Shown here: positions 10,331 to 54,500 of the stretch, piece by piece
How positions within the stretch are numbered: position 1 is the stretch's first letter
Layout: every line of letters starts with the position of its first letter
NCBI GenBank assembly: GCA_951406725.2
Contig: OX597842.1
Coordinates: 4,836,001-4,900,000, forward strand
Length of the DNA stretch: 64,000 nucleotides
Reading direction: 5' to 3'
DNA from: Octopus vulgaris
Lineage: Eukaryota
Notes under the pieces: model-generated
What the model saw: the letters and a program-made list of their open reading frames with translations, nothing else
The model's database searches: none
What the model was told of the DNA's origin: nothing
Program-made: the position numbers and the translations under genes

Positions 10331-11117
10331 TGGTGACACCTCTCGTCTCTAATCATTTTCTCTCTCTTTCTTCAAATAATGTCGCCAATATTCATACAGA
10401 CGTCTGCTGTTAACATTTATACAAATTGTATTTAACCAAGTACAAAATTTGAATCCTTTATGGTCTCCTGTAAAGGAAATATGCCGTGTGTGTGTGTCTG
10501 CATTGTATCTGGCTGCTTCATTTAATATTTCTCTATTTTCAGATATTTGCGTTATATTTTCTATCCTGCTCTACACGCACGCACACATATGTGTGCGTAT
10601 ATATATATCTATATACACACATACTTTCACACGCATACATTATGATCGTGCGTGTATATATATGCGTTTTGCCTATGCGTGTCTTTATACGCATAAATGT
10701 CCGATGTATATACATAAAAATATCGGGCGACCTGTATAAAAGTGTATATAATCACATTCGTATACTCGATGTAAAATCCTAACAATTATATACAATATAT
10801 ACACATTGTTAATATGTATATATTCATATATTCGTGTATATATTGTATATTCATACTCGTGTATACGCATCCACAGACGGTCATAGAAATGTATGTATAT
10901 TTGAACGCTTGAACGTTACTGTATTCAGTATACATGTGAACTCACTTCCGTGTGCGTATATATAAATATATATATATTGTATTAGTATATTGAGATGTCG
11001 TTGAGGCCAAGCTGCAGCATCTCTTTTAATGCGCGCGAGTGTATATGTGTGTGTATAATGGTCTACGTAAGTACTTGTTATATAACCGTTATATTTATAT
11101 GCACCTCATGTCTGTAA

Positions 11118-12185
11118 TATATATATGTGAAAGATAGCCATATATATATACATATATATATGTGAAAGATATACATATATATATGTGAAAGATATACGTA
11201 TATATATGTGAAAGATATACATATATATATGTGAAAGATATACATATATATATGTGAAAGATAGCCATATATATATGTGAAAGATATACATATATATATG
11301 TGAAAGATAGCATATATATATATATACATATATATATGTGAAAGATATACATATATATATACATATATATATGTGAAAGATAGCCATATATATATACATA
11401 TATATATGTGAAAGATAGCCATATATATATACATATATATATGTGAAAGATATACATATATATATACATATATATATGTGAAAGATAGCCATATATACAT
11501 ATATATATGTGAAAGATAGCCATATATACATATATATATGTGAAAGATAGCCATATATACATATATATATGTGAAAGATAGCCATATATACATATATATA
11601 TGTGAAAGATAGCCATATATATAGACATATATATATGTGAAAGATAGCCATATATATATACATATATATATGTGAAAGATAGCCATATATATATACATAT
11701 ATATATGTGAAAGATAGCCATATATATATACATATATATATGTGAAAGATAGCCATATATATATACATATATATATATGTGAAAGATAGCATATATACAT
11801 ATATATATGTGAAAGATAGCCATATATATATACATATATATATGTGAAAGATAGCCATATATATATACATATAGCCATATATATAGCCATATATACATAT
11901 ATATATGTGAAAGATAGCCATATATATATATATACATATATATATGTGAAAGATAGCCATATATATATATACATATATATATGTGAAAGATAGCCATATA
12001 TATATATACATATATATAATGTGAAAGATAGCTATATATATACATATATATAATGTGAAAGATAGCTATATATATATACATATATATATGTGAAAGATAG
12101 CCATATATATATACATATATATATATGTGAAAGATAGCCATATATATATGTGAAAGATAGCCATATATATATACATATATATATG
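11118..12185. repeat. Minisatellite: about 32 copies of TGTGAAAGATAGCCA core separated by variable (TA)n CA (TA)n
   Basis: About 32 GTGAAAGAT cores counted by eye. It produces the spurious Y/I-rich ORFs at 11078-12328. Confidence 0.95.
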
Positions 12186-31644: not shown

Positions 31645-31777
31645 ATGAGTAACGATAAGTGCTATAAATGCAGTAGAACAGGACACTATGCGCGAGAATG
31701 TCGCAGCACTATCTCTGGTATGGGAGGCCGGAGTAATACCGGCATGCGAGATCCGCGATCTCGAAACAATACCGGTG
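31645..31777 (+). CDS. CNBP: CNBP-like CCHC zinc-knuckle protein, coding exon 1 (ATG, knuckle 1, Gly/Arg/Ser linker)
   Basis: Acceptor TTTTGCAG (31643), ATG 31645, MSNDKCYKCSRTGHYARECRSTISGMGGRSNTGMRDPRSRNNTG, donor G|GTAAGT (phase 1). Confidence 0.92.
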
Positions 31778-42159: not shown

Positions 42160-42285
42160 AAAAGTGTTACAAGTGCAACCGCTACGGTCATTTTGCAAGA
42201 GAGTGCAAGGTGGAGATAGACCGTTGTTACAAGTGCAACGAACACGGCCATATTGCTAAAGAATGTAATAAGGAAATAGACAGTG
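42160..42285 (+). CDS. CNBP: CNBP-like coding exon 2 (knuckles 2 and 3)
   Basis: Acceptor TTATTGCAG (42159); (E)[41 protein letters not shown]; donor G|GTAAGT; 126 nt, phase 1-1. Confidence 0.93.
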
Positions 42286-44297
42286 GTAAGTTAAGCTTCT
42301 TGGTTTTCTTTGCATATCTATTTCCCTTTCTCTTTTCTTTCCTCTTCCATGTCTACTATTTTCTGCCTTCCCTCTCATTAATTTGCCCGGATTCCTCGCT
42401 TGTTAGCTCTACCCTTTCCTCTCTCTACTGCTTTCTCTACTTGTTTTATGGTTTTGTTAGGCATGGCCTCCAAGACAGGGAAGCATGGATATTTGGTTTG
42501 AATTCTTGCAACTGGACTCTATTAAAATTAATTGAAGGGATCAGTGCCCTGGCCAGATGGTTGTAATCCACTGTACTCATACAAATTTAGTCCATTGTTA
42601 CACTTCTGTTCACCCAGTAACACTAAAAGACTATTGAAGAAGATACCCAGTCAGAGCCAAACTGTGGTCACATGCAACCTGTGGATCTTTCTAGGTAACA
42701 TTTCCTGTTGAAAATTTACCTTGAACTTTTTTTAAATAGTGCAGCCCACAAGATGATGATCCATGTTTCATGCAACCTGCTTCTCGCAAAAGTTTGTCAA
42801 TGCCTGCACTAGCCTAATCTGCTGTACTGCAATCTTTCCATGCAATGTAATGAACTAAGTTCCCCTCACAGCAGTGGCTACAGCTGCTTTTCTCCAGTAT
42901 AGTGCACCCAGGATCATTCCTTTGAGATATTGAGGGGGCAGTGGTTTGACTTGCTAAGTTTAAATGGATAGCCAATCTTGTGGATGGTGTCTGCAGTGTC
43001 CTTCAAAATGATGTGATCTAAAACGAATTTGGCTTCTATTTCTACCATGTTGACATCCATGTAGAGGCTTGTGTAAAATATTATGATGGGGTGGTGGAAA
43101 CTAAAAGGGGTCTAAATTTCTGGCGAAAAACTTTGTTCCATTGGGTTTGTGGTCCTTTTTTAATTTCAATTAGGAGCAGGTAACTAAACTAAGACACTGT
43201 ACCATTTCCAGTTAGCTTTAGTGTAGATTCATTCACACAACAGACAATCGTTGCTTTTCCCGTCTTCATTTATCTGTAGATATAGTGGAAAGAATCTGTC
43301 TTGAGGCTTTTCACCACTTGGAAGATTTCCAATCTTCCAAATTCTTCTGGGAGGTAATTCTTGTTTGAAATTTTGATCTGCCTACTCTTTGTTGGAAAAT
43401 TTTCTCATGGGAAGAAAAGAATGGGTTAAGGATTCAGACATTCGGTCTCAGTGTTGTGAAAGGACTTGAGGAGGAGGCTGTGTTTAATTTTATGTATTTC
43501 ATGCTTTATTTTTGAACATTTTTGTTTATAATTTAATGAAAAGAAAAAGGTTGTAATGTTTTTGTTATTTTTTGTGTTTTGTTGCTTCCACACCAAACTG
43601 TTAAACCATTTTAATATATATATATATATGTATATGTATTTATGTATATATGTGTGTCTGTGTATGTATAGATGTGTGTGTGTATGTATGTATATATATA
43701 TATATATATTTATAAATAAAATAAATGTTGATCTTAACTTCTGCTTAAGAATGTTTTGTAGTACTGGGCACTTTCTCTCCTTGTCTATTCCTTTAACCCT
43801 TCCATCATCATATTTTTGTTAAGATACATTATAAATTTTTTTAATTTAAACTGTTGTGGGGTTTTTTAATAGAAACATCTATTCTCAGGTGGCTCTATCT
43901 AGTCTTTTAAAAAAGTTTGAGTATATGAAATGTGTATATAAAATATAATATTCATACACAAATTACTCACATTCGATTACTGCACCATTCCTATCCATCA
44001 CGCCTTTCTTTTCTTTTATTTGGGTGTGCGTGTTTGTCTTATATAGAGGCAGGTGTGTTCTAGGGGTGTTCCATTTTGTGTTTTGGAAAGACTGAAGGCC
44101 ACATGAACCTCAGGTGTATGTGTGTGTGTATATATGTACATATGTATGTATGTGTGTATATATATATATACACACACACACACAGTGTGTGTTTATATTG
44201 TATTATACATGAAATAGTTATGGTTTTCATATACTGGAACTGATTATTTGCTTTTGAAAAAAAATTTTTTTACCCCCAAATTTGCTCTGTTTTCTAG

Positions 44298-44382
44298 ATT
44301 TTCTGTAACAGATAAGTTTGAGTTGCCATGATACAAGGATTAGTTAGTGCCACGTCAAACATTACTTGCCGTAGAAGCTGAG
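44298..44382 (+). other. Candidate stop-containing (poison) alternative exon
   Basis: Acceptors TTTGCTCTGTTTTCTAG (44297) and TTTTCTGTAACAG (44311), donor GAG|GTCAGA (44383). In phase 1 both acceptors give a stop (TAA 44306 or TGA 44329). Confidence 0.35.
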
Positions 44383-44487
44383 GTCAGAAACTTGACAGTT
44401 TTTGTGCAGTGGCTTGCCTTAAAAACTCGCCCCTGATGTTCTTGTTAATCCTGTTAATCAGCTTATCTTAATTTTTCTTTTGCACAG

Positions 44488-44544
44488 AGGGGCCACCGTT
44501 TCGTGGCACAGATGGAACTGGCAACTATAAGTATTCTTCGTCAA
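44488..44544 (+). CDS. CNBP: Candidate in-frame 57-nt cassette exon (EGPPFRGTDGTGNYKYSSS) between knuckles 3 and 4
   Basis: Strong acceptor TTTTTCTTTTGCACAG (44487), donor CAA|GTAGGT (44545), phase 1-1, open frame, GC-richer than its flanks. Confidence 0.55.
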
Positions 44545-47500
44545 GTAGGTGTACCTCTAAAACTATGTAGAATTTTGGCATAGAACATTATCATTATTAT
44601 TTATTATTTAACTCCTTTCCCAACTTCTTCCTTCTAATATTCAGTGTTCTCCCTGAGAAGCATGAACTATATGTTTCCCCTTATTTAGGTCAATTTGTCT
44701 TGAAAACCCTTCTAACCCAGGGTGTTATCTGAATACCCTAGCCACACACCTGCCTACTTCTGCATCCTCTCTCTCTTTTTCCCCCTGATCATAGTTGTTA
44801 CACTTGCAGCAACTGCAATGCGCTAACAGTTACATACATATGTAACCAGTTAGTTTTATATAATTTTCTAAGGGAGTATATTTGTTTTTAGGTCACCTGA
44901 CATATAAGGGGTTAATTATTACTTAGTTTCCTTGGATATTAGCTTGGATCTCCCTCTTTCTTTTCCAGGGGATAGTAAATGGTCTTAGGGGTTAAAGTTT
45001 GAAAGGTGATGGTGGTGTTTACGTGGCAGTATCAGTTAGTCTCCATGTTTTGGTGGTTGATTGTCAGATGGTGGCAAGCCTTTGAAAGTAACCAGTCATT
45101 TAGAATTCATCCCATTTTAAATTGAACAAAATGGGCTGGTTTCAATTTCTAGCTTGGATTTTTTTTTCTCTAAATTGGAGACAAGGGAGGTTCAAGCTGG
45201 AGCTAAATTGTATTCATTAACCATCTCCACAGATGGATAGAAAAGTCAAATGGGTTAGAAAAGTCATGCATGCACAAACAATTGCCAGAGGTGTTTTCTA
45301 AATATTTATAATTAAACAGAAATGTCTAGGTTTTCTTTTGTCTCGAGTTGGTGGTTCTGTTGGTATTTCTTTGGCACAGCCCACAGGGAATATCTTCTAC
45401 CATTCTTAGTTGCAGCACCAATGAAATCTAGTAGATTTTTGATGGTGCTTGGAAATCTTGGAGCCAACTCTGATAAATTAGATGTAATTTGTAAAGTAGT
45501 AAATGATTCTACAAGCAACAGGAGTCAATGCAGTAAAGGAGAGCCATTCTCCCTTGGCAAGAATATGCATTTAGTAGGTTGTGAGAGTTTTGGAAATTGA
45601 AAACCCATTCCTACACTTAGTAGTATTGACTCCTGTTGTTAATTATGATTTGGAATTTACACTGATTTAAATACTGTTCAAACATCACTGGTAATTATTA
45701 GTGTCATAGGATATGAAATAAATTTGTGGTATTGTTACAGTTAATTTTTAAATTAGAAATGTTTACTTCACCTCAGAGAAAAAATAAGCAGAATTCTGGT
45801 TTAAGCACCCAGTATCCCCCCTCGATTTTTTTTTTTTTTGAATCTTCAGAAATTTTTTGCAAATTAGTTTTCTACATATGTAAATTCACATGATTATGCA
45901 AAAAAAGATTTTTTCTTCATGGCGATTTAGCGTCTCAAGACCCCACCCTACTCCGTGTGTGGTATGGGGTTTTCCCCTCCCTCTAATCAATTGAATTTTC
46001 TGAAAATTCCAAAAGATAAGTTGTGTGGGATTTATATGGTGTACTTAAACCAGAATTCCATTGGATAAATATAAAATAGGCAGCCAAAACTTAATACCGT
46101 ACGTGACTTTTCTTCACCTTCTGAATTTTTGCATTGCTTTCCTAAGGAGAACACTGACATGCAGTGACTGTATGATAGATGTTTTTACATTAATTTAACT
46201 TTCTTTCCTTCTGTTGTCTCCATCTATTATTTCATAATTGCCTTCTTTTCTCTCTTCAGCTTTTAGCATTTATCTCATCTGAAGCCTTCTTATCTTCCCA
46301 TTCTCTTCCTGTGTTTGTTAGTGTGTATATTGAGGTGGAGGGGTTAGTCCACATTACTCTGTAAGGAACTGATTTCTCTGGTGTATATATTCTCCCCTGG
46401 ATGGGCTGCCAGTCTGTCACAGGATTACTCATTTTTACCAGCTGAGTGGATTGGAGCTGCATGAAATATAGTTGTGCCCAAGAACACAACACATCAGCCA
46501 GTCCTGGAATCAAAACCACAACACATCAGCCAGTCCTGGAATCAAAACCACAATCTTACAATTATGATTACAACACCCTAACCACGGTGTACCTCTAGTG
46601 CCTGTCTATATAACTATCATATGATAGTTATTAATATGTGTATAAAACTATCTTACGAGACAGTTCACAACCTCTTGGGAGGGGCTCATGTCAATAAGAT
46701 GACATATCTACTGCTTTAATTAATCCAATTATGTAAAAGCAGACATGCAAGACAAAAATGAAATATAGGGAGCAAGCTTTTGATACTAGGTGCTGCCAAC
46801 TTACAGTGAATTTCTCTGTAGAAGAAAATTGTTACTTAATGTTCATATTTCCATGCTTGCATGAGTCGGGAGTTTAAGGTGGATTTTCCTACAGCTGAAT
46901 TGCCAACTCTTCACCTGTTTCTAAGTAAGGTAATATTTCTCTGATCATATGCATTTTTGAGGAAGATTTGGAACACACCCCTTGCATAGCAGTTGCACTG
47001 GTTTACAGAAACGCTGCTGGAGGTCATGGGGCAGTATTCTTTATTACTACAACAGATAAAAAATATTAGTATGTAGCTATGTGGAAGCATTTCCTCCAAA
47101 CATCTCTAAGTAGATATACGTAATGAAAGAGTGTACATTGTCAATAAAAGGTGATATGTAGCCAATTAGCAAGGAAGGATACATTAGGTAATGTAGTCCT
47201 AGATACACTGTTGCATGGTGTTGTGTTCAGGTTTTAAGCACATGGCCACCATGTTCTTCACTAGGATGGTCTTTAAATTAGATTTAGACTGTATCCTTGC
47301 TTGGTTTCCCAAGAAATTCAGGTACCCACTGATTAAGACAACCAAGTACAATCGCTGGGTGAGGACAATCTCATTCTCTCTGATCCTTCATAGTTGAATT
47401 TTGCTTGAAACTTTCACAAGGAGCGATAATTATCTATCTTTCCATTCTCCTCTTGTCTGTACTAATATTGTACTAAAACATTGTAAACTCACCTTATTGC

Positions 47501-48875
47501 TGTGCTAATATTTTCCCTGAAAAAATCTATTCCTTGCCCTCCTAACAACTTCTTGGAACGCATGTCACTGCATTTGCTCACTCTTCTCTGCTTGTCTTTC
47601 TGCTTGTTTTCTTCAGTCTGCATTTTCACTTCTCTGTCCCCCCTCCCCCTTGTTTCCGTCCCTTGCTAGCATAGATCTGCTCCAGTGCAGCATCTTGTCA
47701 CTTGACATTGCTTAATGTTATATGATTTTTTAAGACTTAACAGTTGCACTGAATGAAGCATTGTTTTTATTTGGTGTTAGGGATTAAGTGAACTATGCTA
47801 AATACCCTCCATAGAAATCATTGCAACAACATGCACTAAATTATCTGGCAACCTACCTGTGGTGTTTCTTTCTACCTTCCATACTTCTCTACTTGAAATA
47901 CAAGTACTGAAGTGATTTGTGTCAATTTTGGGAATTAGTTATTGAAGGAAGCAGTAAAAGAACAAAATTTGGGGGTATTTTGGTTAGGTTTTTAGTTTAA
48001 AACCTTTCACTATAATCCTTTGTTTTAAGTTGTAGGTTGTGAGGGAAATCTAGTTGTTACTTACAGCAGATAGTGACTATGGATGCTGCTTTGTTGGCTC
48101 TGCAGATGCAGTCACAATATACCGTTTGCTTGTTTTTGTTGGAGGTTGTTGGGCAGCTCTTGTGTCCTTTGTCTATCAGTTGGGTTATCTTGACCAGCTT
48201 GAATACTTCTCTTCCAACCTAGCTGCAATGGTGAAGTCACTCTACAATACAAGTTGTGTATTCACTCATAGCTTAACCCTTTTGTGACTATATTTACATA
48301 GAAATCATTTTTCAAATATCCTCGTAGTTAAGCTGATGTTCAGAGCATCAATTACCATCAAATTTTGAAGAGTGGTCACTTTAAAACCCGGAGCTTGTGT
48401 TGTAGAACCAAGAGTGGTCTCCGAGAGGGGTGGGTAACTGAAGGACTTATATAGAATTGCACTTTCCTTAGTTAACCCTTTAGCATTAAGATTACTCTCT
48501 CAACTGTACTGCTTATTTCTTCATGACAATGTGTAGGGTAAATGTAAGAGGTAGGATCTAGTTGGTTTGAAAATAAAGCAGGTAGAATATTTTGGCCTGA
48601 TATGGTTGGTTTAAATGCTGAAGGATAATCCTGGTCAGTTTTTCTCAGCTGGCCATGGGTCACATATAATTGATGTATATGTTTAACCTCAGGTTCATTT
48701 GTTGTTACAGAGATATTTCAGCTGTGGCCATGCCAGTTCCTCAGTGATTGTGTCCAGGCTCTGTCATTGCCTTATTTAGTGGGTTTAGAAGTTTTAAAAA
48801 ATTATTTTTCTTGACTGTCTGAGCCCTCTATGTGGTTTGTCTTTTATTTGGTGTTAATGTTATTTTACATTGTAG

Positions 48876-49080
48876 GATCATGTTACAACTGTGGCAAGAG
48901 TGGTCACATCCAGAGGGAGTGCCTGGTGGCCAGCTCAAAACCATGCTATCGATGTGGTGTAGCTGGCCATATAGCTCGGGAGTGTTCTGATGAGCGACGA
49001 GATGACCGCAAGTGCTATAACTGTGGTATGACGGGTCACATCTCCAAGAGCTGTCCAGAAAGTGGCAAGAACTGTTACAA
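48876..49080 (+). CDS. CNBP: CNBP-like coding exon 3 (knuckles 4, 5, 6 and start of 7)
   Basis: Acceptor TTTTACATTGTAG (48875); (G)SCYNCGKSGHIQRECLVASSKPCYRCGVAGHIARECSDERRDDRKCYNCGMTGHISKSCPESGKNCY; donor AA|GTTAGT (phase 2). Confidence 0.93.
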
Positions 49081-49175
49081 GTTAGTAGCTCTCTCTCTCT
49101 TTATCTTTCTCTTTTTGTGTTTTATGTTTCTCCTCAATTATGTAATCTAATTTCATGTTTCTGTTTATCTTTTAG

Positions 49176-49290
49176 GTGTGGTGAAAGCGATCACTTGGCC
49201 AAGGAGTGTCCTAGTTTAAATCTAACCCAGTGCTATACATGCAGGGGGACAGGCCACTATGCTAGGGATTGTAACAACCAGGTGCTCTAA
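49176..49290 (+). CDS. CNBP: CNBP-like last coding exon (rest of knuckle 7, knuckle 8, stop)
   Basis: Follows a 95-nt intron ending TCTTTTAG (49175); (K)CGESDHLAKECPSLNLTQCYTCRGTGHYARDCNNQVL-TAA. Absent from the ORF track. Confidence 0.92.
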
Positions 49291-51591: not shown

Positions 51592-54500
51592 TTTTATTCC
51601 CTCTTTCAATTTAAGGCTTTGTGTGATCTGTCTTGGAAATAATAATAAAGCTGACAGTAGATATAGATATGTTGACCCAGTGTCACTTGGCATTATTCCT
51701 TTCACTTTTCCCCCTCCCCTGCTTCATATACAATCCCCACCCCCCTTGAGAAATCATTTAAACCCATTCCCTCCCACACCAGACTTGCCCCCCTGACCCC
51801 ACTGTGTGGCGGCTGAGCAGTTGTAGTTTTCTACATCCTGGATGTGCTTTTTAAAATTTTTTTTTATAGCTTTTAAAGATTTTAATCTGGAGTGTGAGCA
51901 TGAACAAGACACTCCACTCACTAAAGTGTGAGGTGAGATGGTTTTTTTTTCTTTTTTTTTATGAATTTTAAAAATGGCCCTGAAATTTTGTCTGTTGCAT
52001 TTTTCCAGAAAAGGGGTCGCCAGAGGAAGAAGCTGGATTGTGTTTAGATGAAGCTTTTCAATCTTAACTGTTGATGTTCCTGGAGGGGGGCCCTTCCCGG
52101 GCTGCTCCTGGTTGTTTTTAAGTTTTTCATGCATGCATGTATATTGAATTATATGCATGTGTTGCATATTTTTTCTTTTCTTTTCTTTTTAAATGTGTTT
52201 AACGGTGGAGAGAGAGAGAGAGAGAGAGAGAAAGAGATGGGAGAGAGATAGAGGCGGAGGTGTAGGGGTCGTGATAGGTGGGGTGGAAGAGATAAAGATG
52301 GGGGCATAGGGAGTAGTCGGGGAGTAAGAGGTAGAGGGGAGATAAGGAAATTTTAGTTGACAAATTAAAATTTTTTTTTTTTGAGGTGAACAACGTCGTT
52401 AAAAATCCTCTCCCTCAGTACTTGAGGGGGTGGGTGAGGATTTTGGTGGAGGCCCTGGTGCATGAATGTGGCACCATGTGGGTGAATGAGTTTTTTGGTA
52501 GAGAGGCCCAGGTGCACTGATGTGGCATCTTGGGGTGGGGGAGATTGTATCCGTGTCGCAGCTAACAGTATGGTGGAGTAGGGAGTTGTAGATACAGTGG
52601 GGACTGTCGTGTGCTGTTCCTCGACGACAGCAGCACCAAAGACGATGAAGAGGAAGGAAGAGGTTAATGAGAGGGAGGGGAGAAAACTAGAAGGGAGTAA
52701 GTTTTGAAATGAAGATGAGTTGAGATAAGATGAAGAATTTAAATCACTGAATAACGAAGAAATGGAGGTAATGAGACAGAGGGGAGAAAACTAGCAAGAG
52801 GGAATAGTTTGAGATGAAGATGAAGACAACATACCATACAAAGAGGATTTTTAAAAAAAATAACTAAACCAAAGGAATATATATGATATTTTCCACCACA
52901 GTTTTCTAGTGGTGGGATGTATTTTTATAGGCAGCAAAGAAGGAAGATGAGAGAGAGAGAGAGAGATGGAGAAGAGAGGAGATTTGTATATAAATCAGCT
53001 TTAAGTATCGTCGCTCTCGTTGATCAAATTTATCTGACAATTCATCAGACTAGTGCCTTGTGCAGTTTTTCAAGAGTTCCTAAATTCGGTTTGAGAAGCG
53101 TCTCGGTATTGCCATCATAGCAGCACCACCACCACTACCCCCAGTCCATTTTGTGAGTCTTATTGATAAGTCTTTTGAACAAGTTTTTTTTTTCTATATC
53201 TCCCTTTTTATACATATCTGTTTAGATGTCTACAGATAAATGTATAATTGTATATAGCCTTTCTTAGCAGTGAAGGGTGTCATTAGGTAGGGGTGTACCG
53301 GGCAGTGAGCTAGGCTGTCTTTGTATCCACAGTAACATAAAGATGAGGTTTGCTGTCACCATGCTAGATTTTTGTGTAGGGTAGCTCTAGTGAGTTGAGG
53401 AGTACTTTGGTCTCATAGAAATGATGTTCTAGCTGTGTTCTACATGATTTTTCCATAAACAGGTGGCAGTTTAGTTGAATAGAATGGGGTATCTGTTATT
53501 ATGCTGGGGTGGCTCTCTAGCCTGTTGTATGAATGTAGAGCATATAAGGTTTCTTGCACCAAAACCGTTAATATTGTCAACTGTACTGACACTAATATCT
53601 CGAGCCACTTTTCAAATAGTAATCTGGCACCAAATTTGTAGCAATTTTGCAGTTTTTACTTAAGAATCTTCATCAGTTACACACTTTCTTAAACCTTCAG
53701 TCATACAATGGAGGTGGTGGGAGGGTCATCTCTGTTAAAGTTCTAAGAATTCGTTTGTTTTTATTTTGGATGTCTTAACAGCTTCCATTTAAATCTAGCT
53801 TTAAAAACTAACATCAATGTTGCATATATTGATCTGACCACATGTATGTACATGTGTACGCCCCTAAGAGTTACGAGTGCTTTAGGTGCAATGAAGTATT
53901 TGCCATCTTATGATGGTGGCATCAGGTAGGTTTTATGAAACAGGGATGATAATTTGGGGCCCCAGGTAAATGTATGTGGTGAGACACACCCTTGCTGTGC
54001 TGTGCCGGTTGTTTGGCTTTAGGGTTCTTAATTTTTTTTATCTGTTTTCTGTCCTGTAAGTTGTTAGGAAGACGAAGGAGACATGGATTTTTTTCTTTCT
54101 TTTTTTCCCCTTTTTAGCTTAGCTGTTTTCTGTTTTGTGTTGACTCTATACCTACCTACACATAATCTCCATAAATATCTTCATTGATTTCCCCATAGAA
54201 AAAGGGTCGGTTTAGGATTTCATAACTCCCACAATATCTCGATCCTGTGTGTGAGGATTTTTTTCAAGTTGTATGTTACTGTTTACTTTTCTTTTCTTTT
54301 TTTTTTCTGTTCATTTGTCTTGTTGAAAATTTTTTCTTAAATTAAAAAAAAGGGTGCAGGATTTGTACCTAAATAGAATATTAGGGTTTTTTTTCCAAGC
54401 AAGCTATAAGCACATGTAGTTTTTGATTTTTATTATTTTCCTTCTTCCAATATCCACCATCTGTCTATTCCAAAAAAAGAAAAAAAGCAAAAAGCTCTTT

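Follow-up and report, generated by a model that had tools for sequence, protein, structure and literature searches.

Members of the CNBP/ZNF9-Gis2 family are small proteins made of tandem CCHC knuckles (PF00098), a likeness that extends to the octopus protein considered here. Human CNBP binds G-rich RNA and is described as preventing or unwinding G-quadruplexes (PMC10500230, PMC7407576). It has seven knuckles and an RGG motif (PMC7407576), whereas the octopus protein has eight knuckles, and the RGG triplet was absent from both its 192-aa and its 211-aa translations. The closest named homolog among the matches, CNBP of Elysia marginata (P0194), was 80% identical over the exon at 42160-42285 and has eight knuckles and an 8-aa linker. 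In contrast to the family, the main octopus isoform carries a linker of 27 aa between knuckles 3 and 4.

Several described splicing systems resemble this locus in one feature or another. In SF3B3, a stem-loop that is conserved across animals and validated by SHAPE-MaP hides the branch sites of a poison exon which is included in transcripts (PMC11162794). The two cases are alike in that an RNA structure of the intron lies beside a candidate exon with a stop, in the gene of a nucleic-acid-binding protein; however, at the octopus locus no inclusion was seen, the branch candidates lay outside the helices and the fold was not above shuffled controls. In Dscam1, a conserved intronic docking site pairs with selectors, which adjoin many mutually exclusive exons (PMC11802352). 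In both cases short stretches of complementary sequence are proposed to direct the choice of exon, but a single exon is concerned here and one of the arms lies inside it. Pseudo-exons are exon-like intronic stretches with viable-looking sites that the spliceosome ignores, and inhibitory RNA structure is one of the causes listed (PMC3800588). The stretch 44298-44382 was similar to these, although it is not known to be included or to have an activating mutation. Finally, the exon at 44488-44544 shares with ordinary linker cassettes its multiple-of-three length, 1-1 phase, GT-AG borders, position between motifs, and both inclusion and skipping. It does not differ from them in kind, and is placed at a site where linker length is otherwise held narrowly, mostly at 5-9 aa.

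The window, which is the whole stretch of 64,000 nucleotides that was analysed, comes from a genome of 2.8 Gb in 227 contigs, and the exons and helix arms given below are on its + strand. The host gene begins with a coding exon at 31645-31777 (ATG at 31645), which encodes knuckle 1 and a linker according to translation and Pfam (PF00098) and whose 3' end was matched, in all six RNA-type runs, by loose contig ends before 42159, among those listed. It is followed by a constitutive exon at 42160-42285 (knuckles 2-3, two PF00098 matches, phase-1 donor GTG/GTAAGT, joints from 42285) and by a second constitutive exon at 48876-49080 (knuckles 4-6 and the start of knuckle 7). The last coding exon, 49176-49290, is joined to position 49080 by contigs and, by translation, holds the remainder of knuckle 7, knuckle 8 and the stop. 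Altogether the translation contained eight CX2CX4HX4C knuckles, with PF00098 in all four constitutive exons. A candidate for reference gene in qPCR, Ov-CNBP of Octopus vulgaris (MW800707), has been reported (PMC10230085), and at 48890-48916 the window agrees exactly with its forward primer and with the beginning of its amplicon. By virtue of this exact match, the gene is assigned to Ov-CNBP itself or to the ortholog of a very closely related species. The identification of the host gene as CNBP-like, already made by the first-pass annotation, is thus borne out by the eight knuckles, by PF00098 and by the primer; by its domain content the protein, named Ov-CNBP, is CNBP-like without copying the vertebrate layout.

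An acceptor immediately precedes the ATG, upstream of 31644, and one contig of run X7 carried 488 nt ahead of exon 42160-42285, that is, about 355 nt beyond the first coding exon. Because of these two observations, the gene likely has one or more non-coding 5' exons. Region 44240-44600 was single-copy in the genome, and the next-best genomic match of exon 48876-49080 was 56% identical. Other zinc-knuckle arrays, 44-56% identical to this exon, were seen at C15:64855212-64855376 (-) and C18:29222267-29222506 (+), the latter within an open frame of 1034 aa.

Eight of the 20 sequencing runs listed were analysed. Six of them, from four studies and two organism labels (A and B), were taken to be of RNA type because spliced GT-AG joints were present, no run being recorded as RNA; the two others, X16 and X17 (organisms C and D), were of unstated kind and yielded no splice joints. 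The comparison of runs X1, X2, X6 and X13 took in exon 48876-49080, and that of X7, X8, X16 and X17 ended at 45000. Junctions were taken from assembled contigs, in which rare variants are dropped, and targets of nonsense-mediated decay (NMD) are depleted at steady state.

According to the first-pass annotation, two candidate exons separated by a short intron, 44298-44382 (or 44312-44382) and 44488-44544, base-pair with each other and would form a structure-gated switch between a 192-aa form, a 211-aa form and an NMD form with three knuckles. All splice dinucleotides (AG before 44298, 44312 and 44488, GT at 44383 and 44545) were found in place, and the arithmetic of the three products was correct upon in silico translation. 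Only the downstream exon was supported by transcripts. Its upstream joint, 42285>44488 (GT-AG), was found in each of the six RNA-type runs, and its downstream joint, 44544>48876, in all four runs that covered it (X1, X2, X6, X13); in both remaining runs, X7 and X8, a listed loose end matched exon 48876. Contig depths for the upstream and downstream joints were 2092 and 1245 in X1, 96 and 97 in X2, 1260 and 1260 in X6, and 261 and 261 in X13, a single contig depth spanning both joints in the last two runs, while the upstream joint reached 209 in X8 and 735 in X7. Skipping of the exon (42285>48876), like inclusion with GT-AG borders at its junctions, was also detected in five of the six runs: as a joint in X2 (depth 41), X6 (402) and X13 (87), and as listed loose ends at 42286 reading into exon 48876 in X7 and X8. 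The skip joint was absent from the contigs of X1. Rough inclusion shares of 0.70 (X2), 0.76 (X6) and 0.75 (X13) were obtained from contig depths, which are a poor measure, and are to be read as 'majority'. The cassette exon is therefore real with near certainty; inclusion is the main form, and the 211-aa isoform is the main product rather than a rare variant.

This exon of 57 nt is symmetric (phase 1-1), contains no stop and falls between folded motifs. Skipping gives a predicted product of 192 aa and inclusion one of 211 aa, both with all eight knuckles; the 19 additional residues extend the linker between knuckles 3 and 4 from 8 to 27 aa, rich in Gly, Ser, Thr and Tyr. When scored with a rough splice-site matrix, its acceptor fell within the best 1.1% of 1001 intronic AGs and its donor (CAA/GTAGGT) within the best 2.2% of 1133 GTs, outscoring the constitutive donor at 49081. 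A pattern scan based on a branch consensus placed branch candidates at 44433, 44443, 44452 and 44468, followed by a pyrimidine tract and the acceptor CAG, within 44433-44487. At the edges of the exon (44485-44489 and 44545-44552), a second AG occurs two bases in and a second GT four bases past the donor; both would shift the frame, and neither was among the observed joints. A processed pseudogene as source of the joints was rejected, as no second copy of 44240-44600 was found and X16 and X17 had no joints. No description of the cassette was encountered in the literature on CNBP splicing, autoregulation, linker variants and cephalopods, which was surveyed mostly at title level and with few subscription papers; both isoforms may already be present in genome annotations.

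The length of the linker between knuckles 3 and 4 appears to be nearly fixed elsewhere. Of the 37 homologous proteins that matched the linker pattern, 25 had a linker of 8 aa and 33 one within 5-9 aa; likewise, of the 47 matching translations of loci from a metagenome scan (the best 80 of 373), 25 had 8 aa and 43 fell within 5-9 aa. The 19-aa insert of the octopus was absent from all homologous proteins and locus translations examined. Neither the cassette peptide nor the DNA of 44200-44700 had a meaningful match in the best 80 of 373 loci (best nucleotide E-value 0.30), and the back-translated cassette pattern matched only itself within the window. Protein searches, a full HMMER scan, the ESM Atlas and the same 80 loci returned generic CNBP/Gis2-like sequences and no recognisable cephalopod ortholog. 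Three genomic-type loci, L005, L006 and L007, break with a GT at the same phase-1 position, and in L005 and L006 a sequence similar to exon 48876 resumes downstream of the break. Sequence comparison thus indicates that the intron is old and common to unrelated animals, and the cassette is therefore most likely a later gain within it. The cassette was present in organisms A, B and D.

Some variation of the same linker was observed in other organisms. Two CNBP-like transcripts of another organism (L003:297-460 and L004:240-400) had a 13-aa linker at the same intron position, whose five extra residues could come from an independent microexon of 15 nt or from a shifted splice site. L007 had an extension of two residues before the donor. 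Homologs P0156, P0242 and P0247 had linkers of 41-54 aa between 'QQ' and 'GPELS', the linker of the named insect proteins P0165 and P0231 being 7 aa, and L050 had a GT at the 'QQ'/'GPELS' point. These long linkers may stem from intron retention or from alternative splicing that affects this linker too, though at a point not quite identical. CCHC knuckles were also found behind a phosphatase-type N-terminal part (PF00782) in Mytilus proteins named as isoforms of an mRNA-capping enzyme-like protein (RNGTT; P0019, P0023, P0026 and P0045, from three species).

The upstream candidate, 44298-44382 with an alternative acceptor at 44312, behaved differently. Its use would introduce a stop at 44306-44308 or 44329-44331, giving in silico a product of 89 or 92 aa with three knuckles, whichever acceptor is taken. 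A stop generally triggers NMD when the last junction follows it by more than about 50-55 nt, and for this candidate the distance is 256-336 nt in all four combinations, in agreement, in silico only, with this rule. However, none of the joints 42285>44298, 42285>44312 and 44382>44488 was present in the contigs of the six RNA-type runs, contigs from which rare variants are dropped, and 44382>48876 was not found in the four runs able to show it (X1, X2, X6 and X13). Among the contig pieces listed, the candidate was covered by unspliced contigs instead: 44202-44516 at depths of 4.9 in X1, 4.3 in X2 and 9.3 in X8, and 44305-44490 at a depth of 3.5 in X7. The depth over the candidate did not exceed that of the neighbouring intron and amounted to 0.4-4.5% of cassette depth (0.4-0.5% in X1 and X7). 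With the same rough matrix, its acceptor (44311) ranked in the top 3.1% and its donor (44383) in the top 2.7%, but the two large introns hold 12 acceptor-donor pairs at or above its score, namely the candidate itself, the cassette and ten other pseudo-exons. Since ten further pairs reach its score, exon-like stretches of this quality are common in the gene. The candidate is therefore likely an unused pseudo-exon, and very unlikely to be a real poison exon. No poison exon of CNBP was described in the literature searched on this gene, mostly titles with few subscription papers.

In organism C, a deletion of 11 nt (44385-44395) between two CAG repeats lies just inside the donor of the candidate. 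It leaves the complementary arms untouched and shortens the spacer from 105 to 94 nt.

The complementary motifs themselves were exactly as first described, in position and in pairing. Helix A joins AGTTGCCA (44321-44328) with TGGCAACT (44519-44526), and helix B, nested within it, joins GTGCCACG(tc)AAAC (44347-44360) with GTTT-CGTGGCAC (44498-44509). These raise the possibility of a functional helix without any poison isoform: the upstream intron would pair with the body of the cassette and tune its inclusion, with more repression in the cold, and the helix may also bury the pseudo-exon donor at 44383, which is predicted to be mostly paired. Such a role is suggested by narrow null models. When the 85-nt candidate was shuffled and compared with the real exon, 11 of 20000 trials gave two nested helices of at least 8 bp; shuffling of the upstream sequence gave them in 19 of 5000 trials for 278 nt and in 87 of 5000 for 500 nt, and none of 747 other 85-nt tiles had them. 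Nevertheless, the region had been chosen by the first-pass annotation after the match was seen, and a nested pair was present in 15 of 473 arbitrary 271-nt windows of the 64 kb (3%). The duplex energy was equalled by 42 of 1000 shuffles and by 20 of 198 intron tiles, and three of the four constitutive exons likewise have single helices of 8-9 bp beside them. An origin of the cassette by inverted duplication of the upstream intron was considered and rejected: 52 of 485 tiles equalled the best local complementarity (14 nt) of the exon to the intron before it, and the arm spacings were unequal.

Predictions of the fold were similarly divided. The expected number of exon nucleotides paired with the upstream intron was 29.6 at 37 C, against a shuffle mean of 16.7, with only 2 of 70 shuffles as high, and the pair probability of the helices in the 271-nt window rose from 0.39 at 37 C to 0.77 at 18 C. 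However, any helix gains stability in the cold, and 7 of 70 shuffles paired exon and upstream intron as well as the real sequence did at 18 C. At 37 C the pair probability varied between 0.20 and 0.66 in four wider windows and dropped to 0.20-0.25 in a context of 900 nt. The arms also have competing partners: inverted repeat I6 could join both 5' arms, the arm of helix B finding a local alternative partner at 44316-44328, and in I4 a different stretch could pair over the cassette donor. Folding of the whole region against shuffled controls, proposed beforehand as a check on the structure, went against it, the region being less stable than its shuffles (z = +0.97, 166 of 200 equal or better), and the centroid structure contained neither helix A nor helix B. 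Two further structures were tried and discarded: a pairing of 44403-44408 with 44481-44486, which would cover the acceptor (probability 0.0), and a hairpin internal to the exon (0.07). Rfam at the gathering threshold gave no match in 20000-56000.

Comparison with sister taxa was without power in this respect. Divergence from the window is only about 0.2-0.3% in organisms C and D, and their arms were unsubstituted where covered (5' arms in C, 3' arms in D), but an arm of 20 nt would be expected to remain unchanged in 94-96% of cases anyway. Taking all this together, any function of the helix in regulation is unlikely, and its acting on cassette inclusion in the way outlined above slightly more so.

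The complete switch, in which a true NMD poison exon is coupled to the cassette by the helix and CNBP remodels the helix to set its own level, is still less probable than a real poison exon by itself. It can draw on usable AG and GT sites, on the distance of the premature stop from the last junction and on the precedent of a structure-controlled poison exon in SF3B3 (PMC11162794), and the deletion in organism C happens to keep the GT donor, an observation that decides nothing. Against it stand the missing poison junctions and a candidate depth not above the flanking intron. The helices, moreover, do not hide the sites they would have to control: the branch candidates between 44433 and 44472 lie outside helices A and B, in the predicted loop, and the cassette acceptor CAG had an unpaired probability of 0.49-0.97. 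The enclosing helix first described does place this acceptor inside its predicted loop, but the acceptor is predicted to be mostly open there and the exon is mostly included, even though the helix would cover its body. Of the three proposed isoforms, those of 192 and 211 aa had junction support and the three-knuckle form had none. In the consulted part of the literature combining CNBP and poison exons, CNBP figured only through the DM2 repeat, and the match for CNBP and octopus splicing was unrelated by its title. If true, the switch would mean that an RNA chaperone of a cold-blooded animal controls its own level through a structure-gated loop, and no report of this for CNBP was found in the literature searched, mostly at title level. 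Its boldest form, in which a temperature-sensitive helix sets inclusion of a lineage-specific linker exon and silences the stop-carrying exon until CNBP melts it as an RNA chaperone, so that the three outcomes are the long-linker protein, the short-linker protein and decay, is equally improbable, and CNBP autoregulation at this site would at best be a candidate.

Another possible explanation can be based on RNA editing, which is heavy in coleoid cephalopods. An exon and its intronic complement form the duplex geometry of an ADAR substrate, adenosines occur in and beside the arms, and editing would recode the cassette. However, no A>G difference between 44290 and 44560 was among those listed for the six RNA-type runs, from whose contigs rare variants are dropped, and the helices are merely 8-12 bp long and interrupted, which makes this the least probable of the explanations considered.

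The reading that we prefer, with a probability of roughly three in four, is that of a frame-keeping cassette that is mostly included, preceded by a likely unused pseudo-exon and with a pairing that is likely incidental. It accounts for the inclusion joints in all six runs, the skip in five of six, the prevailing 8-aa linker, the unspliced state of the poison candidate and the positive z-score, whereas the narrow null statistics and an exon-to-upstream pairing above 68 of 70 shuffles at 37 C and 63 of 70 at 18 C count against it. Under the preferred reading, the cassette would have arisen within the old phase-1 intron, and the combination of a good acceptor with a non-consensus donor (CAA/GTAGGT) would let exon definition fail in a fraction of the transcripts, of which about a quarter to a third would skip it. 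That the weak donor causes skipping is what we infer; splicing factors may matter as much, since this donor still ranks among the best-scoring GTs. The outcome would be a pair of stable proteins, each retaining the eight CCHC knuckles and set apart from the other by the linker between knuckles 3 and 4 alone, and no NMD step would be required. The 27-aa hinge is predicted to uncouple knuckles 1-3 from knuckles 4-8, allowing looser spacing on G-rich single-stranded nucleic acid.

The result is a modest one of annotation: the main CNBP of the octopus is the 211-aa form, with an insertion of 19 aa where linker length is nearly fixed elsewhere. The natural pair of 192-aa and 211-aa isoforms would be well suited for testing knuckle spacing against binding of G-rich RNA. 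In addition, the published Ov-CNBP qPCR assay should not distinguish the isoforms, because its forward primer lies in a shared exon.

Short interspersed repeats were seen in the large intron at 42735-42806, 46340-46590, 47170-47210 and 48470-48625, with loose-ended contigs at high depth, as well as a 32-nt tandem duplication at 46485-46553. Elsewhere, positions 52001-53000 of the window showed a GC skew of +0.50, with a GA repeat at 52208-52253, and positions 11001-12000 a GC content of 22%, both probably representing simple repeats.
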